Part shown: piece after piece, positions 17,149 to 40,194 of the stretch | How the letters are laid out: each line of letters opens with the position of its first letter | Numbering within the stretch: position 1 is the first letter of the stretch | Source of the DNA: Desulfosudis oleivorans | GTDB taxonomy: Bacteria; Desulfobacterota; Desulfobacteria; Desulfobacterales; SURF-7 | Direction of reading: 5' to 3' | NCBI GenBank assembly: GCA_020723325.1 | Contig: DYJD01000027.1 | Location: forward strand, 15,697 to 79,696 | DNA length: 64,000 nt | Notes under the pieces: generated by a model | Database searches by the model: none | What the model was told of the DNA's origin: nothing | What the model saw: the letters and a program-made list of their open reading frames with translations, nothing else | Made by a program: the position numbers and the translations under genes

Positions 17149-18144
17149 ATGTCGTACACATTCGAATACAGTATTTTAAATAAATATAAAGAACTTATAG
17201 ACGATTTTTTGGACCGGCATCTTGTCGATAAAACGATGTTGTTCCTGTGTAAGGCTCTCAAACTTAATCCGGCAGCAATTACTAGTCAAAAAACCGGTCG
17301 AAGACCCTTATCTCCACACACCTTGAAAGCACTCCTGAAAAACGATCTAATTAAATTCCGAGAATTATTTGGCAATCGCACCTGGGCGGAAATTCCAGAT
17401 GAAGATAAAAACGTGCTGATCCCTCTCGCGATTCCGGAAAATGTTCTATTCGCAATCGGAGAAGCACTTTTTGAGCATGGAGAAATATCTTTGCAGAATA
17501 TGGAAAATATTTTAGAACTTATTAAACATGAGATAGAACCGATCGAAGTTCGTTATATCGGTTCCAAAAATAAGATTGCAAAAATACAAGAAATTGCTGA
17601 ATTGGAAGGTTTGAAAAATTTATCAAAAAACCCTTTTTGGACCACTCAACAAAAACAACTACCGTCAGTTTGCACTCTCATTATAAAGACTCGGAAAATA
17701 AAGGGTATGACACAAAAAGATCTAGCAAAGAAAGCCGGAATAATACCGTATTACCTTTCTGAGATCGAAACCGGACGCCGGGAGCTTACTTATAAAATGG
17801 CTCGCAGGATAGCTTCTGCTTTAGAGCTTGATGTTAATGAACTTCTTGGTGTAGATAAAGAATCGCACATTTCAGCCTCTAACAAAAACTCGATCTCATC
17901 AGGCCTGAAAGCTTTACTCGATAAGCAAACTCAGGATAAACAACTACCGCCAGTTTGCGCTCTCATTATAAAGACTCGAAAAAAAAAGGGTATGACACAA
18001 AAAGATCTAGCAAATAAAGCCGGAATGATCCCGGGCTACCTTTCTGAAATCGAAACCGGACGCCGGGAGCTGTCTAATAAAATGGCTCGCAGGATAGCTT
18101 CTGCTTTAGAGCTTGATGTCAATAAGCTTCTTAACTTAGTTTAA
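17149..18144 (+). CDS. Transcriptional regulator with two tandem XRE HTH domains
   Basis: Two copies of RKxKGMTQKDLAxKAG..YLSEIETGRREL..MARRIASAL; divergent from the tra operon. Confidence 0.85.
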   Translation: MSYTFEYSILNKYKELIDDFLDRHLVDKTMLFLCKALKLNPAAITSQKTGRRPLSPHTLKALLKNDLIKFRELFGNRTWAEIPDEDKNVLIPLAIPENVLFAIGEALFEHGEISLQNMENILELIKHEIEPIEVRYIGSKNKIAKIQEIAELEGLKNLSKNPFWTTQQKQLPSVCTLIIKTRKIKGMTQKDLAKKAGIIPYYLSEIETGRRELTYKMARRIASALELDVNELLGVDKESHISASNKNSISSGLKALLDKQTQDKQLPPVCALIIKTRKKKGMTQKDLANKAGMIPGYLSEIETGRRELSNKMARRIASALELDVNKLLNLV

Positions 18145-18274: not shown

Positions 18275-19717
18275 CTATAATGTCTCGGACTCTTTATAAA
18301 ACAACTCTACAAATATTGCTCGCATCGCATTTTCAAACATCAGACCAGTACGACGGGCCTTTGCTGCGACTGGTAAACTTGAATGACATTTTTTAAAAGC
18401 CTCGCCTTCTCGGTCCTGCATCATCTCTGCAAATTTTAAATCAATATCTGCGTCTCGCTCAGCTTTTTTAATTTCATTCAACTGCTTAGCTCTTTCCTGT
18501 TTTTCTCTTAGTCTCTTTTCAGCTCTTTCCAAAGCCTTTTCTTCAAACGATTTATAGCCTGCCGGCTTATCGTAATATCTGTGCTTTTTTAAAATAGCAT
18601 ACAACCAGTCAAGCACATTTTTTATCGGCTGCCCTTTTTTATCTCTCTCTCCCTTCTCAATCATGTCAAATGCACAATGACATAAAGATTCCAGCATATC
18701 TTCATCCGAAATTTTTAGTTCAGCCATCCACGATTCAATTTTTTGAATCTTCAATTTATCGTTCCAGTATGCGAGGTCAGGGTTTTTTTGTAATGCGTCG
18801 CTTAGTAAGTTAGTTTCTTTTAAAAACTTACTACTAACTATTATAGAGGGATCAATTCGGTGATTTGGTGATTCGGTTATTCGGTTATCTGCTCGGTTAC
18901 CCGGTGATTCGGTTATTCGGTTATCTGCTCGGTTATTCGGTGATTCGGTTATTCGGTTAAAAAATAGATTTGGTTTTAATTTTTTTTGATCGTCATTACT
19001 GACTGGAGTATAACCAAACAGGGGAAAACATCTATCTGTGTCAACAATACAAGTTGTCATTTTGTTTGGACTGCTATTTATTGAAAATCGTTGTAATATA
19101 TATCCTTTTTTTATTAAACTTAATGTACGGCTTCGAACATTATCAACAGATACTGGTGGATAAAGTAAATCCCCTATTCCATCTTTTTTTTCACTATCAA
19201 CCTTATATGGTCTATTAAAATAGAGAGCATGTAGCAATTCATATTGTGCTTTGTTAAGGTCGGATGGTTTTTTTGTATAATCTATGGGCGGTAAATTGAA
19301 TTGTTTATAGGTGTTTTGGATATCCGGCGATTCGGTTATCCGGTTATCCGGGTATTCGGTTATTCGGCTATCTGCTCGGTTATCCGGTGATTCGGTTATT
19401 CGGTTATCTGCTCGGTTATTCGGTGATTCGGTTATCCGATTATCCGGGTATTCGGTTATTCGGATAGAGGATTCGGTTATCTGCTCGGTTATCCGGTTAG
19501 AGGATTCGGTGATTCGGTTATCCGGGTATTCGGTTATTCGGTTATTCGGTGGGCCAGTAATAATGCTTTTCTTTGCAACTAAACGATTTCGATCTGATAA
19601 ACCCAATGGTTTATTGGGTGCAGAAAATGATTCTATTAATTCTTTCTCCTTTTGTCGCTCTTCAGGATTATGATTTTGCTTTCTTGAATTTTTCAATCTT
19701 TCTGCGAGTCCTGTCAT
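18275..19717 (-). CDS. Putative replication initiator (central wHTH-like region) with internal iteron-like repeats
   Basis: Downstream of parA; NRITESP/NRAD peptide repeats encoded by ATAACCGA repeats; C-terminal coiled coil. Confidence 0.55.
   Translation of the reverse strand: MTGLAERLKNSRKQNHNPEERQKEKELIESFSAPNKPLGLSDRNRLVAKKSIITGPPNNRITEYPDNRITESSNRITEQITESSIRITEYPDNRITESPNNRADNRITESPDNRADSRITEYPDNRITESPDIQNTYKQFNLPPIDYTKKPSDLNKAQYELLHALYFNRPYKVDSEKKDGIGDLLYPPVSVDNVRSRTLSLIKKGYILQRFSINSSPNKMTTCIVDTDRCFPLFGYTPVSNDDQKKLKPNLFFNRITESPNNRADNRITESPGNRADNRITESPNHRIDPSIIVSSKFLKETNLLSDALQKNPDLAYWNDKLKIQKIESWMAELKISDEDMLESLCHCAFDMIEKGERDKKGQPIKNVLDWLYAILKKHRYYDKPAGYKSFEEKALERAEKRLREKQERAKQLNEIKKAERDADIDLKFAEMMQDREGEAFKKCHSSLPVAAKARRTGLMFENAMRAIFVELFYKESETL
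18855..18959. repeat. Iteron-like (A)TTCGGTTAT / ATAACCGAA repeat cluster 1
   Basis: Tandem TTCGGTTAT, TCGGTGAT and ATCTGCTCGG units. Confidence 0.9.
19321..19550. repeat. Iteron-like repeat cluster 2 (larger)
   Basis: About 230 bp of the same CGGTTAT-based units. Confidence 0.9.
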
Positions 19718-19739: not shown

Positions 19740-20528
19740 TTAAAAGAATGTTAAAAATTCAGTTGCAAGATTTCGAAAAGATTGTGCTCCTTTTGATTTT
19801 TGAGCGAATGAAAAAATTGTTTGACCTTTAACAAATTCAACACTTTCAAAAAGAGAGCTGGTCGGTATTGAATTTTTAAAAACATTATTTGCACCGAAAC
19901 GTTCAATTGCATCATCAATTACAGCTTGATGGGCTGATTTACGTTTATCTACCTTATTTATTAATATTTTTAAAAACCTTAAATCTGGATTTTTATCTTT
20001 TTTTACGCTGTCCATCAGGTCTAATACCCCTTTTATACCCTCAAGGCTATTTCCTGAGCCTGCGTCCATTGGAATCATAACAAAGTCCGCAGCATATAAT
20101 GCGTTATTTACAAATAGGGAAAGAGTGGGGGGGCAATCGATAAAGATAAAATCATAATTATTGACTACGTATTCGCGGACCGCTTTTCGAAGATAAAGGT
20201 TGCTGTTAGGATAGTTTTGGGCTAACGGAATTTCGAGGCCTGATGTTTCGCTAATATTGGGAAGAATAAAAAGATTCTTATGAATGGTTCGATAAATACA
20301 ATCCTTAATTTCTACAGGTCTGGTTTCTTCAGGATTTAGTAAATGGTATAAACAGCCCTCGATTCTTGCATCAGGTGGTAAGACGGCTCTTGTGCTATCA
20401 GCCTGGGGATCATTATCTATTATTAATGTTTTTTTATTTTTATACGAAAGGGCGGCTGAAAGATTCACCGTAAAGGTCGTTTTACCAACACCGCCTTTAT
20501 AATTAGAGACAGCTCCGATCAGCCCCAT
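19740..20528 (-). CDS. parA: ParA/Soj family ATPase
   Basis: KGGVGKTT, DNDPQA, YDFIFIDCPP. Confidence 0.93.
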   Translation of the reverse strand: MGLIGAVSNYKGGVGKTTFTVNLSAALSYKNKKTLIIDNDPQADSTRAVLPPDARIEGCLYHLLNPEETRPVEIKDCIYRTIHKNLFILPNISETSGLEIPLAQNYPNSNLYLRKAVREYVVNNYDFIFIDCPPTLSLFVNNALYAADFVMIPMDAGSGNSLEGIKGVLDLMDSVKKDKNPDLRFLKILINKVDKRKSAHQAVIDDAIERFGANNVFKNSIPTSSLFESVEFVKGQTIFSFAQKSKGAQSFRNLATEFLTFF

Positions 20529-20753: not shown

Positions 20754-20820
20754 GATAACCGAATCACCGGATAACCGGATAACCGGATAACCGGATAACC
20801 GGATAACCGGATAACCGAAA
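20754..20820 (+). repeat. Octamer tandem array (CCGGATAA)x6, iteron- or centromere-like
   Basis: Six perfect copies at 20767-20814; same ATAACCG core as the repeats in the rep gene. Confidence 0.9.
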
Positions 20821-20829: not shown

Positions 20830-21759
20830 TTGGACACCTTAAGGATAGGGTTGTTTTGTTACAAGGTAACAAACCGCATACTAAAAAAAACAGCTTGGCG
20901 GAACTAAATGAGGCAATTCAGTTCTTCGAGGACAACAAAAAAATGAAAGGAAATTTTGGGCGTTGCGACGCAAACTACGCGCCGCTGCTCTGCAGGGGCC
21001 AGGTCCCGGCAAACTACGCCGGGACTGGCGGCAAACTGCGCCGCCACCCCTGCGGCCGCTAACGCCGTGGCAGCATCTCCCTCCGAACCATTAACTTGGA
21101 CGTTGTTTTGCTAAGCTCCGGTCCAAGAACCTGGAAAACAATTCGGATGAAATCACTATTTTGAAAAGCCCTCCAATATGTCCATAAAACAGGGATGAAT
21201 TCCGGCAAAACCAACCGCCAAAAGGAACAGCTTCTTTTGGCAATTGGCTTTGCTATTCAGAATTCATTGAGTAGGTTGCTGGGACTGAATAAGGTATTCT
21301 GTCTGAATTTTTTTACTTCCCTTCTTAAGGGCGAAAGGGAAGTAAAAAATATTCATGTTTGATTTATTAAAGACTTCAAAACGCAAGGCGTTTAATCCTT
21401 CATTGCTTCGCTACAAGGTAGGAAATCTATATCGTTGTTTGTGGTAGTAATATCGCGCAAAGTTTGGATTAATAATGAATTAATTCATGATATTATGAAT
21501 ATTTAGCCGGCAATAAGTAATTGAATTTTTTGATAAAAATAAATGATAATTATTTTATAACTAATTGTAATTATTATTAAAAATATCTTAAATAATTTAT
21601 AAAAATAGTGATTATTTGCTTGACATATAATTACTAGTTAGCTATATTGTAATCAAAAAGACGGGAAACAAGAAGTAAAAAACCCGCCTCCTGGGCAAAC
21701 AGGAAAGCGGGTCAAGATTCCCCTTCAACCACTTCAAAGCCAAAAGGAGAATGACTATG
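20830..21759 (+). repeat. Leading-region expression module A
   Basis: Shares the palindrome, the triple hairpin (20959-21066), the AT-rich block and the promoter with modules B and C, and the UTR with B; middle part differs. Confidence 0.9.
21620..21648 (+). promoter_or_regulatory. Sigma70 promoter (module A)
   Basis: TTGACA-N17-TATATT with an ACTAGT-centred imperfect palindrome in the spacer. Confidence 0.85.
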
Positions 21760-22572
21760 TTTAGACCAAACCGTAACCGCCTGTCAAGCTATTTGCCACT
21801 GACCAACCAAGATATCCTTGATGCCGCCCCCTCTGTCGGTGCTGTATCGCCTCATGCCGAAGTATCCGACCGTTACCAAATGATCCCCACCATTGCCATC
21901 GTTGACATGATGAGAAAAGAAGGCTGGCAACCCATGCAGGTTTCTGAAGTAAGAGCCAAGGAAGAGGGGAGAAGGGGCTTTCAAAAACACCTTATCCGGT
22001 TTCAGCATAATGATTTGATTTTGGGTGATGAGGCCATTGACGCTGTTTTGGTAAATTCCCATGACCGCTCTTGCGCCTATCAGTTCTTTACCGGGGTTTA
22101 CCGGTTTATCTGCTCAAATGGTATGATTGTCGGCGATACCTTTGAAAGAATATCGATTCGCCACATGAACTTCCAGCCGGAGGAAGTCATTGAAGCAAGC
22201 TATAAAATTCTGGATGATGCACCGGCGATCGGTGAAAAAATCAAAGAAATGAAATCGATTGCCTTGACCGATGCAGAAAAGGCCGCCTATGCCGGCGCTG
22301 CCCTTCAATTGGTGTATGACGAGACGGACCAGGCGCCCTACAGGGCCGAAAAACTCCTATCCCCCAAACGCTCATATGACCGCGATCCCGACCTCTGGAA
22401 AACCTTTAATTCGGTGCAGGAAAATATCATGAAAGGTGGAATCCGCGGCTTGAATCCAAAAACCCGAAAACCAGTGACCACCCGACAAATCACCTCTATT
22501 GATAAAAATGTCAAACTGAATCGCGCCCTCTGGACCCTAACTGAAAAAATGATGGAGCTGAAACGCGGTTAA
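21751..22572 (+). CDS. DUF932/DUF945 family protein (YubP/YafZ-like, typical of leading regions)
   Basis: PLT...APSV...SDRYQMIPT...EGWQP...KHLIRF...NSHD...G.YRFICSNGMIVG...DLWKTFNSVQENIMKGG...LNRALW. Confidence 0.88.
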   Translation: MTMFRPNRNRLSSYLPLTNQDILDAAPSVGAVSPHAEVSDRYQMIPTIAIVDMMRKEGWQPMQVSEVRAKEEGRRGFQKHLIRFQHNDLILGDEAIDAVLVNSHDRSCAYQFFTGVYRFICSNGMIVGDTFERISIRHMNFQPEEVIEASYKILDDAPAIGEKIKEMKSIALTDAEKAAYAGAALQLVYDETDQAPYRAEKLLSPKRSYDRDPDLWKTFNSVQENIMKGGIRGLNPKTRKPVTTRQITSIDKNVKLNRALWTLTEKMMELKRG

Positions 22573-22580
22573 TTAAAGGA

Positions 22581-22602
22581 TTGCCCCTCTACGGAGGGGC
22601 AA
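22581..22602 (+). other. Stable RNA hairpin with a cUACGg tetraloop between co-oriented genes
   Basis: TTGCCCCTC-TACG-GAGGGGCAA; no U-tract. Confidence 0.5.
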
Positions 22603-22620
22603 CAAAAACGAGGTGATGAA

Positions 22621-22938
22621 ATGTCAAATCAAATAGCCCAAAACATACTTCTGCAACTTGGCGGAAATCGATTTAAGACAATGACAGGCGCAAAAAATTT
22701 TCTGGCAGGGGATAGCTATCTACTCTTTACAATCCCCAAATGCAACAAAGGCGGGATCAACTTGGTGATGATTTCGTTGAATGGTCTAGACCTTTACGAC
22801 ATGGCTTTTTTAAGGGTCAAAAAAAAACGTAATTCTATTGAATATGATCAACAGGTCATCGCTGAAGTTAAAAATATTTACTTCGATATGTTGCAAACAA
22901 TTTTTACCGAACAGACCGGGCTTTATACTCACTTATGA
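22621..22938 (+). CDS. Hypothetical protein of a phage/plasmid-type family
   Basis: GAGGTG RBS; IAQNILLQLGGNRFKTMTGAKNF...DLYDM.F...FTEQTGLYTHL. Confidence 0.75.
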   Translation: MSNQIAQNILLQLGGNRFKTMTGAKNFLAGDSYLLFTIPKCNKGGINLVMISLNGLDLYDMAFLRVKKKRNSIEYDQQVIAEVKNIYFDMLQTIFTEQTGLYTHL

Positions 22939-22947
22939 GGTGACGAT

Positions 22948-23217
22948 ATGATGTTTGAATTGGATGAAATTTTACATTGTGTAAGCCTGCTGAATGACAA
23001 CAATGAAGGAAGGGCGGAATACAATTTTATTAGAGCAATAAGCCTGCCGCGTGTTGGAAATAAAGGAGTAGTGACCCTTGATCGAGTCGGCGAAGCGACT
23101 AAGACCATCTGTCAAATGACACGAATATCAAAGGACCCTGAATGCTGGGAAGTAGAAGGAGGAAACGACTTTTTCAGAAGGCTTTTTTATGAACGCATAC
23201 AGGCGGTAAAGCGATAG
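22948..23217 (+). CDS. Hypothetical protein
   Basis: GAGGTG RBS; followed by the hairpin AAGCCCCT-N6-AGGGGCTT. Confidence 0.6.
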   Translation: MMFELDEILHCVSLLNDNNEGRAEYNFIRAISLPRVGNKGVVTLDRVGEATKTICQMTRISKDPECWEVEGGNDFFRRLFYERIQAVKR

Positions 23218-23373
23218 TAAAAAAAGAAGCCCCTTGTTGGAGGGGCTTTACTCTAATAAAATGGGAGAATCTATCATGGGAATTGGAGCTTATAATCGGG
23301 GTTCAAACGGTATCCGTCAAAGAATTAATTAGGTTATGGTCAATTTTAATACCGCGATTTGACTATTTTTTTA

Positions 23374-23402
23374 TTGACTTTTATACTAAATTTTAGTATA
23401 GA
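23374..23402 (+). promoter_or_regulatory. TA promoter with autoregulatory operator
   Basis: TTGACT plus the palindrome TATACTAAA-T-TTTAGTATA. Confidence 0.65.
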
Positions 23403-23408
23403 TTCCCT

Positions 23409-23687
23409 ATGAACTGGAAAATTACTGTAACAAAAAAAGTTCAAAAACAAATAGATTGCCTCCCAGAGCAGGCAAGAAAAAACCTTGCCCTTTTGGCAAA
23501 AGAAATGGAAAGCTATGGGCCGATTAGGGGTAACTGGCCTAATTACAGCCCATTAAAAGGTAACCGACACCATTGCCATATAAAAAAGGGCAGGCCAACC
23601 TATGTTGCAGTATGGGAAATAATAAATAAAGAAATTAGAATAATTGAGGTCATTTATGCAGGTACACACGAAAAAGCGCCGTACTGA
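23409..23687 (+). CDS. RelE/HigB-like toxin
   Basis: 92 aa; WKITVTKKVQKQI..LP...NWPNYSPL...HHCH...YAGTHEKAPY; upstream of an XRE gene. Confidence 0.8.
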   Translation: MNWKITVTKKVQKQIDCLPEQARKNLALLAKEMESYGPIRGNWPNYSPLKGNRHHCHIKKGRPTYVAVWEIINKEIRIIEVIYAGTHEKAPY

Positions 23688-24006
23688 AAGAATTGAATTG
23701 CGATTTGTCGGACCAAGCGACAAGCAGCAAAATGCTATAGATCTTTTAAAGCCACTTGGCTTTTTGAGTGTTACGGATTCAATCCCTTGGCGGGAAGCAT
23801 TCCCTTATTCTAAAGAGGCCCTGCCGGGCGTCTGTCTATCAGGAGCAAGAAGCAAGGAAGGTATTACTCAGCAAGAGCTGTCAAGGCTAACCGGGATTCC
23901 TCAACGGCACATTTCCGAGATGGAACACGGAAAACGGCCTATCGGAAAGGAAAATGCAAAGAAGCTGGGGAAGGCCCTTAATGTCGGTTATAAGGTTTTT
24001 TTATAG
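23656..24006 (+). CDS. HigA-like XRE antitoxin
   Basis: ARSKEGITQQELSRLTGIPQRHISEMEHGKRPIGKENAKKLGKAL. Confidence 0.82.
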   Translation: MQVHTKKRRTERIELRFVGPSDKQQNAIDLLKPLGFLSVTDSIPWREAFPYSKEALPGVCLSGARSKEGITQQELSRLTGIPQRHISEMEHGKRPIGKENAKKLGKALNVGYKVFL

Positions 24007-24058
24007 CCATCATATTTATAGCCCAGAATTGCTGGTTTTCAGCAAAGCCAAGGCAGCG

Positions 24059-24317
24059 TGCAGCCATTTTGCGCTCCGCCTCCCTAGCCTAAACCTTTGC
24101 AATAAGACCTCGACTTTGAATCTAACAGAGCGCAAATTTGCCGGCACGGCCCACCCTGCAAAGGGTGTTTTTATTCCATACAAGAATCTATCGCCTACCA
24201 GGCATTAAGCCAATTTGTCGTTCCCACGCCCCGGCGGGCGCAAAATGGCTGCAACAAGGTGTTCCATCAAAAAATTTAAATTCGCTGCGCTAACAATCTT
24301 GCGCGAGGACGCGCTTT
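24059..24317. repeat. Long stem-loop element copy 1 (Frpo/ssi-like)
   Basis: TGCAGCCATTTTGCGC...GCGCAAAATGGCTGCA arms (24059-24253); homologous to 33592-33850. Confidence 0.75.
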
Positions 24318-24434
24318 GTATTCCTTCCCGCCCTCCACCCATATAAACCCGGCCGGATACGGCCGGGTCCCTTCTTCGAAGTTTAAATAAATATATGGAC
24401 ACCTGGGCACCTCAGTAATTAAATAACAGGGAAG

Positions 24435-24680
24435 GCAGATAACCGAATCCTCTATCCGAATAACCGAATACCCGGATAATCGGATAACCGAATCACCGAA
24501 TAACCGAGCAGATAACCGAATAACCGAATCACCGGATAACCGAGCAGATAGCCGAATAACCGAATACCCGGATAACCGGATAACCGAATCGCCGGATATC
24601 CAAAACACCTATAAACAATTCAATTTACCGCCCATAGATTATACAAAAAAACCATCCGACCTTAACAAAGCACAATATGA
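24435..24680 (+). repeat. Inverted copy of 19239-19484 (internal rep iteron segment)
   Basis: Reverse complement matches over 246 bp; identical shadow-ORF translations. Confidence 0.9.
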
Positions 24681-25532
24681 TCGGACAAGCGACGGGTGCT
24701 TGATCTTGTTACAAGGTAACTAATATTTCAGAAGCACCAGACAACAATATAGGAACAGCATAGGGACAGTATGTTGAAACTCATGCCGGCAAAGCCAGGG
24801 GCTCTTACATGAAAACTGATTTTGGGCGTTGCGGCGCAAACTACGCGCCGCCGCTCTGCAGGGGCCAGGTCCCGGCAAACTACGCCGGGACCTGGCGGCA
24901 AACTGCGCCGCCACCCCTGCGGCCGCTAACGCCGTGGGACCGCCTCCCTTCCGAACCATTACCTTGGACGTTGTTTTGCTAAGCTCCGAACCAAGGACCT
25001 GGAAAATAATACAGCAGCAGGCTTTCAGCACTGCATTAGCTCGGGCTTACAGCACCGAGCATTATTGCTTGCGTTCCGCAATGCGTAATGAAAGCCACCA
25101 ACGCCCAGAAACCCAGGTGGGGCCTCCATTGCCGTGCAAGATTGTAATGCCAAAGACCACAGGCCATTAATTTTTAGGTAAGCCGATAGTCACGTTCTTT
25201 ATCATTTCAAAGGATATTGATTACAGTTTGACTACTTCAGCTCGGCTGTTAAAGAGAAAAAATAACCCGCAAAGGCCATTCCAGGGTAGCAAGGCAGCTA
25301 TTGGGGGATAAGCCGCTTTAGGGCTATATAGGAAAGTTATAGTTATTTTTATATGGTATATTTTTGGATATAGTTATTGCATTAATAATGAATTGATTCA
25401 TTATATTATGAATATTTGGCCAACAATAAGTAATTGGATTTTTTGATAAAAATAAATTATAGTTATTTTATAACTAATTGTAAATATTATTAAAAACCGC
25501 TTAAAATATTAATAAAAATAATACTTTTTTGC

Positions 25533-25561
25533 TTGACATATAATTACTAGTTAGCTATATT
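25533..25561 (+). promoter_or_regulatory. Sigma70 promoter (module B)
   Basis: Identical TTGACATATAATTACTAGTTAGCTATATT. Confidence 0.85.
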
Positions 25562-25663
25562 GAAATCAAAAAGACGGGAAACAAGAAGTAAAAAACCCGC
25601 CTCCTGGGCAAACAGGAAAGCGGGTCAAGATTCCCCTTCAACCACTTCAAAGCCAAAAGGAGA

Positions 25664-27526
25664 ATGACTATGCCTACCACTTCTGAAAAAAATTTACAAG
25701 CCGAATACACCGCAACCTATAGCCCGGAAGATAACAAACTTCGGCTCTACTCTTTGCACCGGCTGGACACAGAAACCTATTCCCGCCTTAAGGCCGCCGG
25801 TTTCAAATGGGCTCCAAAACAACAGCTTTTTGTTGCCCCCATGTGGACCCCGGGGCGTTACGATTTACTTGTTGAATTGTGCGGAGAAGTCGGAGACGAA
25901 GATACAAGCTTAGTTGAACGGCAACAGGAAAGGGCGGACCGGTTTGAAGGGTACAGCGAAAACCGTTTGCAAGATGCCCATGCCGCTAAAGCGGCCGTGG
26001 ATGCCATTGCCGACCATATACCCTTTGGGCAGCCGATCCTTGTTGGACATCATAGCGAAAGACACGCCCGGAAACATGCCCAAAAAATCGAAAACGGCAT
26101 GCGCAAGGCGGTTAAAATGTGGGAAACCTCCCAATATTGGAAAGACCGGGCCGTTGGGGCCTTGTGTCATGCGCAATACAAGGAAAGTCCCAGAGTCAGG
26201 GCCAACCGGATCAGAACAATCGAGGCCGATAGGAGAAAGGCCACGAGAGAGAGGGACGAATTCCGGGCACGCTTCAATTCTTGGTTAAATCCGACAGTCC
26301 CATTTAATCTATCGTCGGCCATGGCGATCACAGCAGGCAGCTATTCCGCTTTCAAATTCCCGCTGGACCGATATCCGCGAGAAGCACCGAAAAGCCAATA
26401 TGAGGGCGAAATGTCTTTATATAGGGCATTGGAAGAGGGGATTATCACGCCACGACAGGCCCGCAACCTGCATGTCCCCGTATTGGTCAGGACAATAAAA
26501 AACCGTGAACGCTGGATAGCCCACTATGAAAACCGCCTCATTTATGAGCGGGCCATGTTGGAAGAGCAGGGGGCAAGCGATTTACTTAAGCCCAAAGAAA
26601 GGCCTAAACAATTACCCCTTTTGAATTATCGCCAACCCGAAGGGTTTATGATTGAAAACATTTACCGCAAAGGGGAATCCAGTCTTTACCCACAGGTGGA
26701 AATGACAAAGGCGGAATTTGCCAAAATTTACCAGGATTACAAGGGTACTCGAATTGTAGAAAATTCCCACAGGGTACGGTTTGCAGTGCTACAAAACCAT
26801 AAAAGAGCGATCATTTTTTTAACTGACAGCAAAGTACATGAAAAGCCGGAGCCGGTTGTTAAGCCGGAACCAAAACCCCTGGCAATTGCGATGCAGATTA
26901 ATTCAAGCCCGGATTACCCAACAAGAGAGCGGACCCAGTTTGACGATATGAAAAACACCTTGAAAAATGGTGGTGTTCAAATCGTATCCGCTCCGCAGCT
27001 TTTCCCCACACCGCCGGAACTGGCAAGGCGTATGGCCAGGGAGGCGGGGATACTAGCAGGAAGGCGGATTCTTGAACCATCCGCAGGGACCGGAAACCTT
27101 GTATCGGCAGCAATAAATGCCGCTTCTGGGGCTGATTGCTGCCGAATTGTCGCCGTTGAAATAAATGCCGCCCTTGTCGGCGAATTGCGAAATATGAGAG
27201 ACAAAACGCTTTATGCAAATGGCCACAACTTCGAAATTAAACATGCCGATTTTCTGGACTGCAACGGCGACCTTTTGAAATTTGACCGGATCATCATGAA
27301 CCCACCCTTTGAAAACGGGGCCGATATAAAACATATCAAGCATGCCATGAGCTTTCTCAAGGAAGGGGGCCGCCTGGTGGCACTTTGCGCGAACGGGCCA
27401 CGCCAACGGGATCAACTGAAACCGATCGCCGAAGAAAGTGGCGGATTCTGGGAGGACCTCCCGGCCGGAACTTTCAAAAATGCCGGCACCAATGTAAACA
27501 CGGCCCTTTTGGTCATTGAAAATTAA
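25664..27526 (+). CDS. DUF3560 domain protein fused to a SAM-dependent (probably N6-adenine DNA) methyltransferase
   Basis: N-terminal ATYSPEDNKLRLY...IPFGQPILVGHHSERHAR; C-terminal LFPTP..ILEPSAGTG...IIMNPPF. Confidence 0.85.
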   Translation: MTMPTTSEKNLQAEYTATYSPEDNKLRLYSLHRLDTETYSRLKAAGFKWAPKQQLFVAPMWTPGRYDLLVELCGEVGDEDTSLVERQQERADRFEGYSENRLQDAHAAKAAVDAIADHIPFGQPILVGHHSERHARKHAQKIENGMRKAVKMWETSQYWKDRAVGALCHAQYKESPRVRANRIRTIEADRRKATRERDEFRARFNSWLNPTVPFNLSSAMAITAGSYSAFKFPLDRYPREAPKSQYEGEMSLYRALEEGIITPRQARNLHVPVLVRTIKNRERWIAHYENRLIYERAMLEEQGASDLLKPKERPKQLPLLNYRQPEGFMIENIYRKGESSLYPQVEMTKAEFAKIYQDYKGTRIVENSHRVRFAVLQNHKRAIIFLTDSKVHEKPEPVVKPEPKPLAIAMQINSSPDYPTRERTQFDDMKNTLKNGGVQIVSAPQLFPTPPELARRMAREAGILAGRRILEPSAGTGNLVSAAINAASGADCCRIVAVEINAALVGELRNMRDKTLYANGHNFEIKHADFLDCNGDLLKFDRIIMNPPFENGADIKHIKHAMSFLKEGGRLVALCANGPRQRDQLKPIAEESGGFWEDLPAGTFKNAGTNVNTALLVIEN

Positions 27527-27565
27527 GTTAAGGCCCTGCAGCGTTCTGCTCTGCAGGGCAAATCA

Positions 27566-27913
27566 ATGGAGGAAAACATGGAAACAACGCTTGACCAGAT
27601 TAAAAGATATTCAGGTGGAAAAGATATCGCGGTGCTTGCCCCGCTTAATCATGATATCAATGATATATCGGTCTTTCTGCATGGGGTGCCCTTGCCTGAT
27701 AGTATTAGTAGGCAACCGTATACAAAAGACCCTGACCTCATGCCGATTCTGCATGAAATAAATGCCGCAAATGAAGGCGTTTTCAAGCGCATAAACATTG
27801 AGGGAATCCGGAGAAAACTGTTATATCTGAAATTCTTACAGAGTGGCGGAGCTTCGATTCATTTGTATTTAATCGAACCGGCAAAAGGATTTGGGCCGGA
27901 ATTGGATGAATAA
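27566..27913 (+). CDS. Hypothetical protein
   Basis: GGAGG RBS before the internal ATG at 27578; co-oriented with neighbours. Confidence 0.6.
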   Translation: MEENMETTLDQIKRYSGGKDIAVLAPLNHDINDISVFLHGVPLPDSISRQPYTKDPDLMPILHEINAANEGVFKRINIEGIRRKLLYLKFLQSGGASIHLYLIEPAKGFGPELDE

Positions 27914-28403: not shown

Positions 28404-29428
28404 TCCCCGCCCACCCACCCAGAGGAACCCGGCCGTATCCGGCCGGGTTCCTTCTTTGCTCAAGCTTAATTAAAAATATGGACACCAAGACACCTGGATA
28501 CCTGGACACCTAAATTACCAAATAGCAGGGCTATCGGACAAGCGGCGGGAGTTTGATCTTGTTACAAGGTAACTAATATTTCAGGAGCAGCAGAGAACAA
28601 TATAGAAACAGCATAGGGACAGTATAGGTTGAAACTCATACCGGCAAAGCCAGGGGCTCTTACATGAAAACTGATTTTGGGCGTTGCGGCGCAAACTACG
28701 CGCCGCCGCTCTGCAGGGGCCAGGTCCCGGCAAACTACGCCGGGACTGGCGGCAAACTGCGCCGCCACCCCTGCGGCCGCTAACGCCGTGGCTGCATCTC
28801 CCTCTGTACCATCGCCTTGGACGTTGTTTTACTAAGCTCCGAAGCAAGGACCTGGAAAATAATACAGCAGCAGGTTTTCAGCACTGCATTAGTTCGGGCT
28901 TACAGCACCGCGCATTATTGCTTGCGTTCCGCAATGCGTAATGAAAGCCACCAACGCCCATAAACCCAGGTGGGGCCTCCATTGCCGTGCAAGATTGTAA
29001 TGCCAAAGACCACAGGCCATTAATTTTTAGGTAAGCCGATAGTCACGTTCTTTATCATTTCAAAGGATATTGATTACAGTTTGACTACTTCAGCTCGGCT
29101 GTTAAAGAGAAAAAATAACCCGCAAAGGCCATTCCAGGGTAGCAAGGCAGCTATTGGGGGATAAGCCGCTTTAGGGCTATATAGGAAAGTTATAGTTATT
29201 TTTATATGGTATATTTTTGGATATAGTTATTGCATTAATAATGAATCGATTCATTATATTATGAATATTTGGCCAACAATAAGTAATTGAATTTTTTGAT
29301 AAAAATAAATTATAGCTATTTTATAACCAATTGTAAATATTATTTAAAACGTCTTAAAATATTAATAAAAATAATGCTTTTTTGCTTGACATATAATTAC
29401 TAGTTAGCTATATTGTAATCAAAAAGAC
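28404..29428 (+). repeat. Leading-region expression module C
   Basis: CCCGGCCG hairpin, GGACACC octamers, palindrome, triple hairpin (28680-28787), AT-rich block, promoter. Confidence 0.92.
29386..29414 (+). promoter_or_regulatory. Sigma70 promoter (module C)
   Basis: Identical TTGACA-N17-TATATT. Confidence 0.85.
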
Positions 29429-29447: not shown

Positions 29448-29753
29448 ATGAGAAAAAGACAAATGCAAACGTACTGCACACAAAATAATGGTGATTGTCG
29501 GACATGCGCACTAGTAAATCACGGCCGCGACTGCCGAAACAATCTGATTGCAAAACGTGAAGAGATTTGTGCATCATGTGGCCTGCCGGCGGATAATTGC
29601 AGGTGTGACAACCATATAGAAATTTTATCGAATTATTGCCAATGTGGAGAAGTGGTTTGGTGTTGTCCCGCGCATTCGCCAAATTATTATGCTTCTGATA
29701 GAGCTATTTATCTTGCTGCCCGTGCGAAAATAGCCGACCAAATACCTTTCTAA
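29448..29753 (+). CDS. Cys-rich, probably Zn-binding, hypothetical protein
   Basis: CTQNNGDCRTC..C, CASC, CRC, CQC, CC motifs; first gene after promoter C. Confidence 0.65.
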   Translation: MRKRQMQTYCTQNNGDCRTCALVNHGRDCRNNLIAKREEICASCGLPADNCRCDNHIEILSNYCQCGEVVWCCPAHSPNYYASDRAIYLAARAKIADQIPF

Positions 29754-29768
29754 AAATGAGAGGGCAAC

Positions 29769-30140
29769 ATGGAAATTAAATTCAGCCAAAAATACACCTT
29801 AACAAGGGAACATCCTGCATCACATTATGGTGCTGGAGTTCTGCTCGATACCGAAACCGGTATTGTTTACGGCCCGAGTGATGTTTTGCCGCCTAATCCA
29901 TTGGGCAGTAAAATGCTTGGCGTTGAAATTAAAGTAGAAGCTGGATATTTTATCGTTTCGAATGTATGCCATCCAACTGTTGCCTCTTTAAATCATCGAT
30001 ACTCGGGAGATCAATTGGGTTTCATACGCAGGTATCTTTCCCAAGATCCGTCCGGGCGCTTTGAATTGCCCGATAATGAAACCCTCACTCAATATTGGCG
30101 AGAGGCGGAAGAAAGAAACGACGCGGAAAACAAGCTGTGA
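29769..30140 (+). CDS. Hypothetical protein
   Basis: GAGAGG RBS; operonic. Confidence 0.65.
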   Translation: MEIKFSQKYTLTREHPASHYGAGVLLDTETGIVYGPSDVLPPNPLGSKMLGVEIKVEAGYFIVSNVCHPTVASLNHRYSGDQLGFIRRYLSQDPSGRFELPDNETLTQYWREAEERNDAENKL

Positions 30141-30210
30141 AAAATGAACCGCAGCTCGAAAGTGCGCTGAAGAAACTTAAAATTTTACTTCCGGCCCGAA
30201 GGAGATTCTT

Positions 30211-30741
30211 ATGCAGAAATTGAATCATATTCATCGGGGTGTAGTACGTGCGGCGATGAACGCCGATGGTTGGAAATTTGTTGGAGAATTCAATCGATAT
30301 CCAGAAGAAAACGGCAGCTATGTTTTTGTTTCATCTGATTTTGATCCGAATGATTTGTACTCAGAAATCATGGTTTGTACGCTGTATGAAGATTATGGCG
30401 ACATCGAGATCGGAGCAGTTCATGAGTTCAACAATGAATTCATTTATACGATTGTCTTTTTTCCCGGTTATAGTTTACTAGAAAAATTGACGGCCCGATA
30501 TCCGCTGAGGGTTCCCCTGGGGCCTGAAAACGGCCCGGCTCAGCGATACATGGAAGAATACCAACGAGAGATTTTAAACGGCATGCGCGGATTCCCCTCG
30601 CAAGATGAATGGATTCATATTCAACAAAAATGTATCGAGGCTGCTGAAAGCAATAATTTTGAAAGATCCCAAAATTTATTTTTACCCCCTGGTATGACGT
30701 TACCAGCGCAGGAATTGAAAAATGAGCAACTATATTTCTGA
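30211..30741 (+). CDS. Hypothetical protein
   Basis: AAGGAG RBS. Confidence 0.65.
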   Translation: MQKLNHIHRGVVRAAMNADGWKFVGEFNRYPEENGSYVFVSSDFDPNDLYSEIMVCTLYEDYGDIEIGAVHEFNNEFIYTIVFFPGYSLLEKLTARYPLRVPLGPENGPAQRYMEEYQREILNGMRGFPSQDEWIHIQQKCIEAAESNNFERSQNLFLPPGMTLPAQELKNEQLYF

Positions 30742-30964
30742 CTGGCCCAATAACACGGAATCGGCCCGCAAATGGGCTGATGGCTGGGTGAAGAACGCGG
30801 AAGAAACCGGAAATATATTTCCAGCTCAATGTATAAACAAGTGCGCCAAAGCCTTTAAAAAGCGTTTTTGTACAAACGGGATATGGGTACCTGGGGCTGA
30901 AGCTGTTTTTGAAATGCTACAGGACAAGGCCTGGGCCGCGGCACAAAAGGCGGACGAATACTAG
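30722..30964 (+). CDS. Hypothetical protein
   Basis: Overlaps the end of the previous gene; plausible helical protein. Confidence 0.55.
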   Translation: MSNYISDWPNNTESARKWADGWVKNAEETGNIFPAQCINKCAKAFKKRFCTNGIWVPGAEAVFEMLQDKAWAAAQKADEY

Positions 30965-31293
30965 TTGTAGTATATTACTATGAAATGATTTGATATTGGT
31001 CTTTCTTCTGAAAAATTAGGCCATCAAGCTCGGTTTCGAAGAATTAGAATAACAACGATTGGACAAAACGACAGCAATGTGATTTGTTACAAAGTAACAA
31101 ACTCCTCATGACAAAAAACAATTTAGAAGAATGAATATGGGTTCAAATGCGGCTGCTGTTAAGATGCAAGCAGAGACAGCCTGGGAAAACCGAAAGAATT
31201 TTATTTGTCAGGCGCTTGAGCTTAAAGATCCGATTCTGATTGTCGCCGGACCGACCGGCAGGCTATGGGATTGGATGCGAAAGGGGATTGCTG

Positions 31294-31482
31294 ATGAGAA
31301 GAAATAATTTCTGCGAATCAATAACTGTCTATCGCTGTGCGGCGGCCGATGAGGACGAAATGAAAAAGTGTAATTTTTTTGAGTCTGCCGAAGATGGCGG
31401 GCATTGCGGAAATGCGATGGAGATTATTCCAGGCATGATAAGATGCCATTCAAAACGGGCGCAAAAGAATTCAATGGCGTGA
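31294..31482 (+). CDS. Small Cys-rich hypothetical protein
   Basis: AGGGGGA RBS before MRRNNFCES; five Cys residues. Confidence 0.45.
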   Translation: MRRNNFCESITVYRCAAADEDEMKKCNFFESAEDGGHCGNAMEIIPGMIRCHSKRAQKNSMA

Positions 31483-31501
31483 ATAAAAATAAGGGAAGAG
31501 C

Positions 31502-31735: not shown

Positions 31736-31785
31736 GTCGATTTTCCGGTATTTCAACTCTGAAAAATGCAAAGGGCGGTCCCCCC

Positions 31786-32220: not shown

Positions 32221-32229
32221 TTGTAAAAT

Positions 32230-32388: not shown

Positions 32389-32422
32389 ATTTTTCAACAT
32401 TGTTCAAGATCGGCCAAGGGCT

Positions 32423-33331: not shown

Positions 33332-33366
33332 AGTATGGGTAAAAAATAGTTGCGTGCTTTCGGAAA

Positions 33367-34292: not shown

Positions 34293-34324
34293 AAGGGCGC
34301 ACTTATAGGTTGCAAGCAACCCAT
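34293..34324 (-). other. oriT of the MOBQ (RSF1010/pTi) family
   Basis: Minus strand reads TATGGGTTGC-TT-GCAACCTATAAGTGCG^CCCTT: inverted repeat followed by the conserved TAAGTGCGCCCT nick motif. Confidence 0.9.
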
Positions 34325-34366
34325 ACTAACAGAATCGGCCATATCGGCCTACCATCTTGGATAAGA

Positions 34367-37300
34367 ATGGCGAGCTATCATTTGTCAGTCAAGGTATTCG
34401 GTAGAAGCGGAGGCAAAAGCGCTCCAGCGGCGGCGGCATACCGTGCTCGCACGGCCTTGACGGATAATCGGCAGGGTCTATCTTTCGATTACTCAGCAAA
34501 ACAAGATCTGGGATTTTCAGTGATTATGGCTCCAGATCATGCCCCAGCTTGGGTATATGACCGCTCAAGCCTTTGGAATGCTGTTGAAGCTTCAGAAAAA
34601 CGGAAAGATTCCCAAGTAGCCCGCGAAGTTGAAATCGCTCTTCCAAAAGAACTGACGCTTGAACAAAACATAGAACTGTTGAAAGAGTTTACCCAGAAAA
34701 ATTTCGTGGATCTTGGCATGATTGCCGATGTTAATATCCACAACAATGAAAAGAATCCCCATGCCCATATCATGCTCACAACCCGCGAGATCACACCCGA
34801 CGGCTTTGGGAAAAAGAATACCGATTGGAACAAAAGAGAAAATGTTCTGATTTGGCGAGAAGGCTGGGCCAATTTACAGAATATTCATTTGCAACAAGCC
34901 GGTTTTGATATCCAAGTCGATCACCGGTCCCATGCCGACCGTGGGATTGATTTAGAGCCCCAGATTCATTTGGGACCCGATCAAAAAGCTGAATCCGACG
35001 AGAAAAGAAAACCTGATCGCATTGAAGAATACCGACGGATTGCCCGAGAAAACGGCGAACGGATTATTGCCGATCCCTCCATTGCATTGGATGTCCTTAC
35101 CCGCCATCAAGGTATTTTTACCCATTTGGAAATTGATAAATTTGCACATTCACATTCTGTCGATGAAAAGCAATTTTTTAAAGTCGTAAGAGCTATTGAA
35201 GAAAGCTCGTCGCTATTGAGGATAGGGGACAATGAAAATGGCGTTTTGTGTTACACCACCAAGGAAATGATTCAGGCCGAAAAAGAAATGCTGACAGCGG
35301 CTCACGAAATGAAAAACGCCAATTATCGTTTCAGCGATTCCAAAAAAGTCGAACCGGTCCTCGCCACGAGGACCTTGACCCAAGAGCAGGAAAAAGTATT
35401 TCGGGATATCATGTACGGTCCGCCGCTTTCATTGGTGATCGGCAAGGCCGGCACCGGCAAAAGCTATACCCTTGACGCGGTAAGGGAGGCTTATGAAGCC
35501 CAGGGATTTACCGTGAGGGGAGCGGCCCTTTCCGGGATTGCGGCTGAAGGCCTTCAGAATTCGAGCGGGATCGAAAGCCGGACCATCCATAGCCTGCTTA
35601 ATCAATTGGACCAGGGCCGGGAGCAGCTCAATAAAAATCATGTTTTGATTGTTGATGAGGCCGGCATGGTAGGCACAAGACAAATGCACCGGATCGTCCA
35701 ATATGCGCATGATGCTGACGCAAGATTGATTCTTGTGGGGGATGTGGATCAATTGCAGCCCATCGAGGCCGGCGGCCCGTTCCGTGGTCTGGTGGGGCGT
35801 CACTATTCTTCAGAACTTCAAACCATCATGCGGCAAAAGCAAGATTGGCAAAAACAAGCCACCCATGAATTATCCAACATGGTAAACAATTATGAATTCA
35901 AGAAGGGGCTGGACCGATATGCCCAGGCCGGCCAGATTCATGGGTATAAATCTTTTGACTCAGCCAAGGCGGGTTTAATTCAGGAATGGAGCCAATATCA
36001 AAAAGAAAATTATGGCAAGTCCAGTTTGATTTTGGCCCATCGCCGGGCCGATGTGTCTGAACTGAATTTGGCCGCCCGCGAGGAACTGAAAAAGACCGGG
36101 CTTATTTCCAGCAAGGAATATGAAATCGAAACCGCCCGGGGTGACCGGATGTTTGCCCAAGGGGAACGCATCATGTTTTTGAGGAACGAAAACTCCATGG
36201 GCGTGAAAAACGGATCCCTGGGAACCGTGACCGCTTTTGGTTCGGGCGGGGGCTCCATGACCGTGCGTATGGATGATGGCCGGGCGCTGGCGTTTGACAC
36301 TCATATGTACAACAACTTTGATCATGGGTATGCGGCGACGATCCATAAAACCCAAGGTGTGACCGTGGACCGCACTTTTATTCTAGGCACCTATGGTCTT
36401 GATCGGCAGTTGGTCTATGTGGCCTTTTCTCGGCATCGTGAAAACGTTTCTTTGCATGCCGGGGTAGGGAAGGGGAAGGACGAATTCCGCGATTACAAAC
36501 ATATGAGGGAAGTGTTCCTTAAGAGCCGTGAGAAGGGTTTGGTTTTGGATTACGCACATTTTAGAGGGGTGTTCGATACGGATAAGGCTCTTTATCCGAA
36601 ACTCAATCCTGCTGAATACGCGGTATCAAAAGGGTATGCCGTAGACAAAAACATGAGCTATCCGAATTCCCTAGTGTTGGATGGAAAGGACGATAAAATT
36701 CTAGTTTCCAGAGATAAGGAAGGCAATTATTCGTATACCTCTCTGAACGGCAAGGGAACTGGCTCAATCGTCGAATTGCATCAAGCCGTAACCGGCCAAA
36801 ATCCTGCCCAGGCCCGGGAAGCGGTGCAAACATGGCTGGTCCAAAAATCGGAACCGGCAATAACGATTCCCAACATCAATTCTTACATTGGGCGTGAGGA
36901 GGCTTTTAAGCAGCTTCACAGCGCCCATGCCATCGATCCGGAAAATCCCTATCTGGAAGGGAAGGGGATCTTTAAAAAGACGCTTCAGGATGTTCGATTC
37001 AAATATGTGGTGTTTCAGGATGAAAATAAAAACGTGCTGTATGCCTTTCGGGACCGTGAAGGCCTTACCGGGTTCGAGGAGCGGAACACAACCCATACTC
37101 GGTATAGTAGCGATGTTCACGGGGTTTGGGAATCATTCAAAAGGCCGGGGGACACCCAGCTTGTAATCACCGACACGCCGTTACAGGCGCTCTCGTATCA
37201 TCAGTTGCACGGGGACGAAAACACGCGGTATCTGGCGGTGTCCACCGGCATCAACACCAAGGCACAGAAAGAGATGATCAGGGAACGGATTTCTGGGATG

Positions 37301-37555
37301 CCCGAAGGTTCAGACATCGTGATTGCCACCGGTCATGGTGAAAGAAACGAACGGATAGCCGGCGGCTTGGAAAGATTGTATGCCGAGGTTAAGCGGGATG
37401 ACCTTACCATCAAACGCGAGAAGCCGAAAGATGATTTCAATCTTGATTTGAGAGAGAAATTATCTGAATTGGAATTGAAGTTCCCTGGCTTGTCGAAGGA
37501 GAGGGGGCTGGAACTGGGGAAAAACCCGCGTAATTTGCCGGGATTATCACTGTGA
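34367..37555 (+). CDS. traA: Ti-type conjugative relaxase TraA (MobA/MobL relaxase + RecD-like helicase + DUF3991/Toprim-like tail)
   Basis: MASYHLSVK..RS.GKSA.AAAAYR, NPHAHIMLTTR, VDHRS, GKAGTGKS, VDEAGMV, GYAATIHKTQGVTVD. Confidence 0.93.
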   Translation: MASYHLSVKVFGRSGGKSAPAAAAYRARTALTDNRQGLSFDYSAKQDLGFSVIMAPDHAPAWVYDRSSLWNAVEASEKRKDSQVAREVEIALPKELTLEQNIELLKEFTQKNFVDLGMIADVNIHNNEKNPHAHIMLTTREITPDGFGKKNTDWNKRENVLIWREGWANLQNIHLQQAGFDIQVDHRSHADRGIDLEPQIHLGPDQKAESDEKRKPDRIEEYRRIARENGERIIADPSIALDVLTRHQGIFTHLEIDKFAHSHSVDEKQFFKVVRAIEESSSLLRIGDNENGVLCYTTKEMIQAEKEMLTAAHEMKNANYRFSDSKKVEPVLATRTLTQEQEKVFRDIMYGPPLSLVIGKAGTGKSYTLDAVREAYEAQGFTVRGAALSGIAAEGLQNSSGIESRTIHSLLNQLDQGREQLNKNHVLIVDEAGMVGTRQMHRIVQYAHDADARLILVGDVDQLQPIEAGGPFRGLVGRHYSSELQTIMRQKQDWQKQATHELSNMVNNYEFKKGLDRYAQAGQIHGYKSFDSAKAGLIQEWSQYQKENYGKSSLILAHRRADVSELNLAAREELKKTGLISSKEYEIETARGDRMFAQGERIMFLRNENSMGVKNGSLGTVTAFGSGGGSMTVRMDDGRALAFDTHMYNNFDHGYAATIHKTQGVTVDRTFILGTYGLDRQLVYVAFSRHRENVSLHAGVGKGKDEFRDYKHMREVFLKSREKGLVLDYAHFRGVFDTDKALYPKLNPAEYAVSKGYAVDKNMSYPNSLVLDGKDDKILVSRDKEGNYSYTSLNGKGTGSIVELHQAVTGQNPAQAREAVQTWLVQKSEPAITIPNINSYIGREEAFKQLHSAHAIDPENPYLEGKGIFKKTLQDVRFKYVVFQDENKNVLYAFRDREGLTGFEERNTTHTRYSSDVHGVWESFKRPGDTQLVITDTPLQALSYHQLHGDENTRYLAVSTGINTKAQKEMIRERISGMPEGSDIVIATGHGERNERIAGGLERLYAEVKRDDLTIKREKPKDDFNLDLREKLSELELKFPGLSKERGLELGKNPRNLPGLSL

Positions 37556-40167: not shown

Positions 40168-40194
40168 TATGGTTTCCTTTCATTGTCAAAAAGC

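Follow-up and report, generated by a model that had tools for sequence, protein, structure and literature searches.

What does a folded sequence of about 108 nucleotides (nt), repeated three times in the leading region of a conjugative system, do for the operons that follow it? The question is raised by a window of 64,000 nt (positions 15,697 to 79,696 of contig DYJD01000027.1, Desulfosudis oleivorans assembly GCA_020723325.1), in which each of three copies, named A, B and C, presents three GC-rich hairpins with 7-nt AAACT(A/G)C loops, nested in two closing helices. We found that this triple-hairpin element is a real, strongly selected nucleic-acid fold, present in three copies on the strand transferred in conjugation. 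As to its role, we lean, with confidence somewhat short of even, towards a single-strand initiation (ssi) signal, a priming site on the transferred minus strand that would rapidly make the downstream promoter and operon double-stranded. We infer three parts of this reading: the folding of the single-stranded DNA (ssDNA) in vivo, the recognition of the three loops by a protein, and priming as the outcome.

Sequence and fold of the element

Hairpin 1 (in the version of copies B and C) reads GCGGCGC-AAACTAC-GCGCCGC, hairpin 2 GTCCCGGC-AAACTAC-GCCGGGAC, and hairpin 3 TGGCGGC-AAACTGC-GCCGCCA. A GCAGGGG/CCCCTGC helix surrounds hairpins 2 and 3, and a GGCGTT/AACGCC helix surrounds the entire element. 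Hairpins and closing helices had been reported at three positions in a preliminary description of this DNA, and the sequence reads there as described (Table 1). All three copies share one orientation and are spaced by about 3.86 kb. Within the fold, they differ at just three places: an unpaired base; an extra C in copy B, whose partner is a G that would be bulged without it, so that the stem of hairpin 2 reaches 13 bp; and the replacement of G by A in hairpin 1 of copy A, the sole stem substitution, which makes an A.C mismatch on the plus strand and a G.T wobble on the minus strand.

A pattern of the three loops matched three times in the window and in none of 100 shuffles. Throughout the 7.22-Mb genome, hairpins that combine an AAACTRC loop with five or more perfect pairs number nine, eight of which lie within the three copies, the ninth being a 5-bp stem on a different contig; the whole genome holds only these three copies of the element. 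Contigs from one DNA run match the element without differences, an agreement that is not independent support, because the run is probably the very sample behind the window assembly.

When both strands of the 131-nt element (copy B) were folded with DNA and with RNA parameters, the fold was significant in all four cases. The free energies were -45.5 kcal/mol for minus-strand DNA, -44.8 for plus-strand DNA, -75.5 for plus-strand RNA and -78.1 for minus-strand RNA, with z-scores from -4.2 to -5.0, and in each case none of 200 shuffles was equally stable. A sliding DNA fold of the region 16000-37600 (21.6 kb, 864 windows of 150 nt) identified the element copies as the strongest single-strand folds in the stretch scanned: the 13 most stable windows all overlap them.

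Covariation was analysed with the nine hairpins treated as paralogues, which gave an alignment of 4 distinct rows. Pairing is present in 27 of its 28 cells, and five of the seven stem pairs show compensatory changes on both sides. The covariation score was matched by none of 500 shuffles, and sliding the partner by 1-3 columns lowered the pairing from 96% to 25-56%. Among the nine hairpins, no variation occurs in the two closing pairs or at 6 of the 7 loop positions. The claim that the stems differ while the loops are conserved is therefore borne out, with the stems remaining complementary throughout.

Several features set the two strands apart. On the minus strand, and on this transferred strand only, each loop can close via a G.T pair to leave a pentaloop (T/C)AGTT, and minus-strand DNA is more stable than plus-strand DNA by 1.3-2.8 kcal/mol in the best window of each copy. 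Together with the substitution in copy A, loop closure and folding energies are hints in favour of the minus strand, few in number and not independent of one another.

The transferred strand and the repeated modules

The preliminary description had the loops read G(T/C)AGTTT on the transferred strand, and the origin of transfer (oriT) agrees with it: because of the polarity of its nick motif, the minus strand is the one transferred, leaving at about 34297 toward lower coordinates. The layout of this oriT is identical to that of the RSF1010 nick substrate, in which, as given in Table 2 of PMC4814116, an inverted repeat lies 5' of the nick and the 3' part remains on the relaxase. The same motif lies approximately 60-110 nt in front of the TraA homologues of seven further loci, L129 (NZ_AP021877.1), L130, L131, L132, L135, L140 and L148, a distance of about 80 nt in L129 and L148. 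The open reading frames (ORFs) that follow the element copies are all on the plus strand (21751-24208, 25664-27913 and 29448-33331), and the transferred strand (T-strand) is therefore their template.

Each triple hairpin forms the first block of a repeated module of about 1 kb that ends in a sigma-70 promoter. The three regions were aligned and identity was scored in 50-column blocks. Between copy A and copies B/C, identity is 28-48% upstream, 80-100% in the 200 nt of block 1 (about 20938-21135 in copy A), 26-46% over the next 300 nt or so, and 80-98% in block 2. Block 1 comprises the triple hairpin and a fourth hairpin; block 2 is AT-rich and contains a palindrome and the promoter. By their alternation of like and unlike blocks, the modules clearly look like mosaic products of recombination.

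The TTGACA-17-TATATT promoter is the top promoter match of the region in all three modules, and it starts 554, 600 and 599 nt after the end of the triple hairpin in A, B and C, respectively. Taken as single strands, the promoter regions give folds no stronger than those of shuffles (z of -0.04, 0.41 and -0.86), and the inverted repeats over them are weak, none being strong enough to rebuild the promoter. In modules B and C, the operon promoter adjoins a divergent sigma-70-like promoter, the two being back to back; in A the divergent one is degenerate (9/12). On neither strand did the promoter scan find a site of 9/12 or better, be it within block 1 or immediately upstream, and the terminator scan called no intrinsic terminator at the three elements on either strand. 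The sequences flanking the element are GTGG... on the plus strand and CAAAAT... on the minus strand, and no U-tract follows the fold. The terminators of upstream operons (24152-24167 and 24301-24314) precede the module.

A small ORF, with its ATG (20944, 24809 and 28664) 14-16 nt ahead of the fold, was considered as a coding gene and rejected, as it is not conserved: the extra C of copy B shifts its frame, and both substitutions within the element are non-synonymous. A Shine-Dalgarno motif was not seen upstream of it.

Two further palindromes recur in all modules. The invariant TTGTTACAAGGTAAC precedes each triple hairpin by about 90-105 nt, and the block 2 palindrome, likewise invariant, lies about 130 nt before the module promoter; both look like operators for plasmid repressors, the former for a protein that binds duplex DNA. 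Genes at 17149-18144 and 23644-24006 code for HTH_3 proteins. An 8-nt unit (ATAACCGR and variants) also forms arrays at 18855-18959, 19330-19550, 20754-20817 and 24456-24589. Two of them lie inside a 480-aa ORF downstream of parA (18275-19717, minus strand), which has NRITES-type peptide repeats and no family match, and the other two are intergenic, just upstream of modules A and B; these arrays may serve as centromere or iteron-like sites and, at the same time, as coding repeats. Direct repeats of 83-88% identity (24115-24335 with 33649-33868, and 32227-32414 with 33364-33551) link the end of operon A and the interior of operon C, or the sequence after it, with the stretch before the mob gene and oriT, and include terminator-like hairpins.

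Table 1. Positions of the triple-hairpin element, of features in its modules and of conjugation features (window coordinates unless an accession is given)
Feature	Position	Strand	Basis or remark
Triple-hairpin element, copy A	20959..21066	-	hairpin 1 GCGACGC: A.C mismatch on plus strand, G.T wobble on minus
Triple-hairpin element, copy B	24825..24933	-	one additional C, hairpin 2 stem of 13 bp
Triple-hairpin element, copy C	28680..28787	-	sequence reading, pattern match, fold
Fourth conserved hairpin, copy A (CTTGG...CCAAG-type stem)	21094..21128	-	alignment, sequence
Fourth conserved hairpin, copy B (CCTTGG...CCAAGG)	24962..24996	-	alignment, sequence
Fourth conserved hairpin of block 1, copy C	28815..28849	-	alignment, sequence
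Invariant palindrome TTGTTACAAGGTAAC	20856-20870, 24706-24720, 28559-28573	.	3 matches vs 0/100 shuffles
Block 2 palindrome ATAATGAAT-NN-ATTCATNAT	21472-21491, 25385-25404, 29238-29257	.	pattern recurrence
Sigma-70 promoter of operon A, TTGACA-17-TATATT (11/12)	21620..21648	+	promoter scan
Sigma-70 promoter of operon B, TTGACA-17-TATATT (11/12)	25533..25561	+	promoter scan
Sigma-70 promoter of operon C, TTGACA-17-TATATT (11/12)	29386..29414	+	promoter scan
Divergent sigma-70-like promoter TTTACA-17-TATAAT (11/12), modules B and C	25484-25456, 29337-29309	-	promoter scan
336-aa ORF, first large gene entering the recipient	32321-33331	+	no Pfam, NCBIfam or PHROG match
oriT core	34294..34330	-	inverted repeat GGTTGC/GCAACC, then TAAGTGCG/CCCT-type nick motif
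traA, Ti-type MOBQ relaxase-helicase	34367..37555	+	TIGR02768, 784 bits vs cut-off 590; true start ATG 34367
Modules of plasmid Do28_1	NZ_AP021877.1 4665-5420, 10717-11189, 11896-12651, 19612-19803		one copy directly beside oriT

Besides traA, the conjugation genes of the window include an F-type type IV secretion system (TraC, TraE, TrbI) on the minus strand, extending up to about 15.9 kb, and parA lies at 19740-20528. The three leading-region operons are predicted to be of anti-defence type. Operon A opens with a DUF932 gene (21751-22572), and operon B with a gene for a DUF3560 plus methyltransferase protein (25664-27526), a homologue of the leading-region methylase of IncF/IncI plasmids that shows 42-49% identity to leading-region methylase genes of many enterobacterial conjugative plasmids. 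Operon C consists of the ORFs from 29448 to 33331, all on the plus strand, the last of which is the 336-aa ORF of Table 1. The Atlas clusters nearest to its product are labelled AcrVA2-like on 29-38% of their members (score 0.97, of low recognition value), so that an AcrVA2-like nature of this first-entering protein is a lead only. The leading region also holds many small ORFs, for which PHROGs and NCBIfam searches were uninformative.

The C-terminal 331 residues of TraA (36560-37555) form an extra domain outside the TraA_Ti model. DUF3991 reaches 24.4 bits there, just short of its cut-off of 24.5, and there is a Toprim-like stretch, for which a genuine Toprim protein encoded by the BuS5 plasmid gave a weak alignment (E 0.018); at the acidic DxD position, where the BuS5 protein has DND, the TraA tail reads GHG. 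A comparison of this tail with solved structures by sequence gave no match, and its single-sequence structure model was unusable (mean predicted local distance difference test score, pLDDT, of 44.7). To the right of traA, the stretch 37566-51368 encodes proteins of signal-transduction type, namely a response regulator, a Ser/Thr kinase with an FGE-sulfatase domain, an HD-GYP-like HAMP/GAF protein and a SpoIIE phosphatase, and the right border of the conjugative element, or its cargo, may therefore begin there.

Known systems and searches for relatives

The preliminary description had recognised no known family, and our searches agree. Rfam gave no match at gathering thresholds over the whole window, and in the region 24600-25700, with E values allowed up to 10, it gave chance-level matches only (E 0.34-9.7, all far below gathering). 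A blastn search (word size 11) with the element and with the whole module against 72,556 plasmid records, IncF and IncI plasmids included, returned no match, nor did a comparison of the element with 40 relatives. A covariance model of the element (R1), run against 150 genomes of the order, gave one chance-level match (E 0.07). The three-loop pattern was found neither in viral contigs nor in 400 other genomes of the phylum, and in its strict form it was absent from metagenome contigs. A loose pattern matched at least 119 stretches in genome contigs; among the matches listed, those outside the window are simple tandem repeats, and relatives may be missed by it.

The searches that started from the relaxase led to homologous loci, and the element was not found at the loci inspected. 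Eleven metagenome loci (33-54% identity) and loci in 4 of 400 other genomes of the class were obtained. In the flanks of the TraA homologues of L130, L131, L132, L135, L140 and L148 the oriT motif is present and the triple hairpin absent; the best relaxase-homologue locus (55% identity) has no repeated module, and the BuS5 plasmid, which carries the closest DUF932 (57%), has no such element. So far as searched, the element appears in one metagenome-assembled genome only.

Among known systems, the location of the element recalls the ssi and Frpo elements of F, ColIb-P9 and pESBL, which are described as repeated upstream of leading-region operons (PMC12672017, PMC7690428). In those accounts, Frpo, ssi1-3 and the class 2 and 3 promoters are proposed to serve both early expression and primer supply. 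Like Frpo and ssi1-3 as described there, the elements of the window are repeated, near-identical and structured, and lie on the transferred strand, in intergenic regions upstream of leading operons. The described Frpo systems are large imperfect stem-loops (328 nt in Frpo) that rebuild the -35 and -10 boxes, whereas our element, built of three short and perfect GC hairpins that share one loop, lacks promoter boxes, has a separate duplex promoter further downstream, and shares no sequence similarity with them. Membership of the Frpo-type ssDNA promoters was accordingly rejected: the location agrees, and neither the rebuilding of -35/-10 boxes nor sequence similarity was found.

The likeness to G4-type priming sites, which the preliminary description had drawn, holds for the three-stem-loop architecture and fails for homology. 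In the phage G4 origin, according to PMC6783573, three stem-loops phase the single-strand-binding protein (SSB), and primase starts at a CTG 3' of them. Both are three stem-loops on an ssDNA template, and the fold z-scores are -4.06 for G4 and -4.7 for the element. The G4 hairpins stand side by side, with unequal lengths and unlike loops, in contrast to the hairpins of the element, which are nested in two closing helices and have one common loop sequence. With filters off, model R1 reached at best 4.9 bits (E 2.4) on the phage G4 genome, at one hairpin only. On the minus strand of the window, every copy has a CTG some 27-37 nt beyond the 3' end of the fold and further ones within it; CTG is the G4 triplet, and that of the present host, judged Desulfobacterales-like from its nearest plasmid relatives, may differ.

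A sequence-specific ssi on a MOBQ-type plasmid, as proposed here, has a described counterpart in RSF1010, where ssiA and ssiB each present a hairpin and specific bases recognised by RepB', the dedicated primase of the plasmid, with priming 3' of the hairpin (PMC8567376). As described, the RSF1010 sites are single 40-nt hairpins in oriV, one per strand; the window differs in having three hairpins per element and three elements, all on one strand and in the leading region.

The nearest analogue that we would name is on the Desulfosarcina ovata plasmid Do28_1 (NZ_AP021877.1), which has the same backbone of parA, leading genes, mob, oriT and traA, with a relaxase 47% identical. Like the present locus, it carries repeated intergenic modules of its own upstream of leading operons. 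These contain a GC-rich hairpin of about 120 nt (fold z -10.1; compensatory changes in 12 of 38 predicted pairs) and short GC hairpins whose loops, (T/C)AACT, share the AACT core and whose stems differ and yet remain paired. Unlike the hairpins of the element, those of Do28_1 are single, lie about 215 nt apart and stand next to the 120-nt hairpin. The module is followed by a strong plus-strand terminator and a TTGACT-17-TAGAGT promoter. Model R1 gave at best 9.1 bits (E 2.7) on Do28_1, with no alignable similarity; because the model does not detect the Do28_1 hairpins, kinship with the element is only a lead, not a finding. Taken together, our comparisons indicate that the literature supports the logic of an ssi signal, not the identity of this element.

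A proposed priming signal and its rivals

From these results, a hypothesis regarding the action of the element may be put forward. The T-strand would enter the recipient 5'-first from oriT toward lower coordinates, and in each module the operon would therefore arrive before the promoter, and the promoter before the triple hairpin. A primase, or a primosome loaded with the help of the element, would start the complementary strand at the hairpin cluster, and the primer would be extended toward higher coordinates, so that the promoter of the module and then its operon would become duplex. The sigma-70 promoters would fire only after this conversion: as they have no single-strand fold, they could not work in the manner of Frpo and would have to await the second strand. 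With three such signals about 3.86 kb apart, second-strand synthesis would be fast and Okazaki-like, and the outcome would be an early, repressor-free burst of leading-region genes. We prefer this hypothesis because the only strong ssDNA folds of the leading region sit where a start of synthesis would be most useful. Of the preliminary description, the observation is confirmed, and its interpretation, a multivalent ssDNA or RNA signal such as a priming site, a loading site or a decoy, is supported in part.

A number of points weigh against priming. The position of the CTG differs between copy A and copies B/C, and by chance about one CTG per 64 nt is expected. The strand preference has behind it a single substitution, a loop motif that is repeated and energy differences that are small; gene conversion could keep the three copies alike, and the searches brought no homologue from another lineage in which the loops could be compared. 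Very stable, perfect GC stems could hinder a polymerase, and the gap of 554-600 nt between element and promoter is not explained by an ssi signal. The structured region of Do28_1 precedes a strong plus-strand terminator, which would fit an RNA gene there. As to an enzyme, no active primase was found on the contig of the element, where Toprim_2 and Toprim_3 gave no match, and the Toprim-like stretch of the TraA tail may be inactive; RepB_primase (PF16793) gave no match in the genome, and none in the control genomes either.

The same fold could act as RNA, for example in a minus-strand transcript that starts at the divergent promoter and ends in, or is stabilised by, the hairpins, or in a plus-strand RNA whose loops bind a protein or kiss another RNA, in the manner of a sponge or antisense RNA. 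We regard this as unlikely. The fold is equally significant with RNA parameters (z of -4.5 and -4.2), the G.U-compatible substitution and the loop closure suit minus-strand RNA as well as minus-strand DNA, the 11/12 divergent promoter of copies B and C would read into the element, and the D. ovata module is followed by a plus-strand terminator. On the other hand, the divergent promoter is degenerate in A despite the conserved hairpins, and no copy has a plus-strand promoter-like site upstream of the element; an RNA role would hence have to do without a conserved promoter, since none was seen in block 1 and the divergent one falls short in A. Neither a U-tract after the fold nor a called terminator was seen on either strand, the plus strand bears the A.C mismatch of copy A, Rfam has no match, and the upstream operons terminate before the module. 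The strand, orientation and structure evidence speaks equally for a second unlikely explanation, in which a protein binds the folded ssDNA for purposes other than priming: phasing or exclusion of SSB or RecA, anchoring of a piloted plasmid protein (e.g., the DUF3991/Toprim-like tail of TraA), helicase loading, or, as a decoy, the capture of a host nuclease or defence sensor specific for branched or hairpin DNA. The identity of the three loops points to a reader that is multimeric and sequence-specific, the nested three-way junctions are similar to branched DNA, and genes of putative anti-defence type adjoin; however, no candidate reader was found, with the TraA-tail model being unusable, and decoying or protection leaves the position of the element upstream of each promoter unaccounted for.

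Two other explanations seem improbable to a greater degree. The element might belong to a new class of ssDNA promoter with a Frpo-like role, at which RNA polymerase would start on the folded DNA and make both a primer and an mRNA with a long leader. Its repetition upstream of leading operons, on the template strand, is like that described for Frpo, ssi1-3 and the pESBL class 2/3 promoters (PMC12672017), but block 1 has no -35/-10-like boxes of 9/12 or better on either strand, the stems are short and nearly pure G+C, whereas the stem-loops described are long and imperfect, a canonical duplex promoter already lies 554-600 nt downstream, and the plasmid search, with IncF and IncI records in it, was blank. 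There is also little to recommend a feature of duplex DNA, be it GCAAACTRCGC direct repeats bound by a protein, a cruciform at an operon boundary, or a functionless relic of module duplication. This 11-mer does occur three times per copy, the modules are clearly of the mosaic kind that recombination would produce, and they carry other palindromic operators; yet the spacings of the 11-mer, 39 and 22-23 nt, are out of helical phase, and a duplex site has no need of flanks that differ while staying self-complementary. The conservation of block 1 at 80-100%, between flanks below 50% (A versus B/C), argues against a neutral relic.

Returning to priming, a bolder form of the hypothesis may be considered, which we find rather doubtful. 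The element would then represent a new class of sequence-specific, trivalent ssDNA signal, in which three same pentaloops (T/C)AGTT, each closed by G.T, would be read by a multimeric primase, a helicase loader or a piloted plasmid protein, and which would couple priming to a burst from duplex promoters. The AGTT-loop hairpins of Do28_1 would be distant members of such a class, spread among plasmids of sulfate reducers.

How conjugative elements achieve early gene expression in the face of host defences is known in some detail only for the enterobacterial IncF/IncI plasmids, where the solution is folded single-strand promoters. The element described here, from an uncultivated subsurface bacterium, suggests a different solution, namely ordinary duplex promoters that are each preceded, along the path of the growing second strand, by a strong structured signal on the entering strand. 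Its best explanation at present, held tentatively and with the mechanism conjectural, would be a new variant of ssi signal placed to switch on duplex promoters early. Should it prove to be something other than a priming site, it is still a clean case of a selected nucleic-acid fold of which no relatives have been described. A priming function would mean that single-strand promoters can give way to fast, local synthesis of the second strand; the element would then be a compact, sequence-defined ssi with repeated loops, well suited to mutational dissection, and would point to a new reader protein of the host or of the plasmid.

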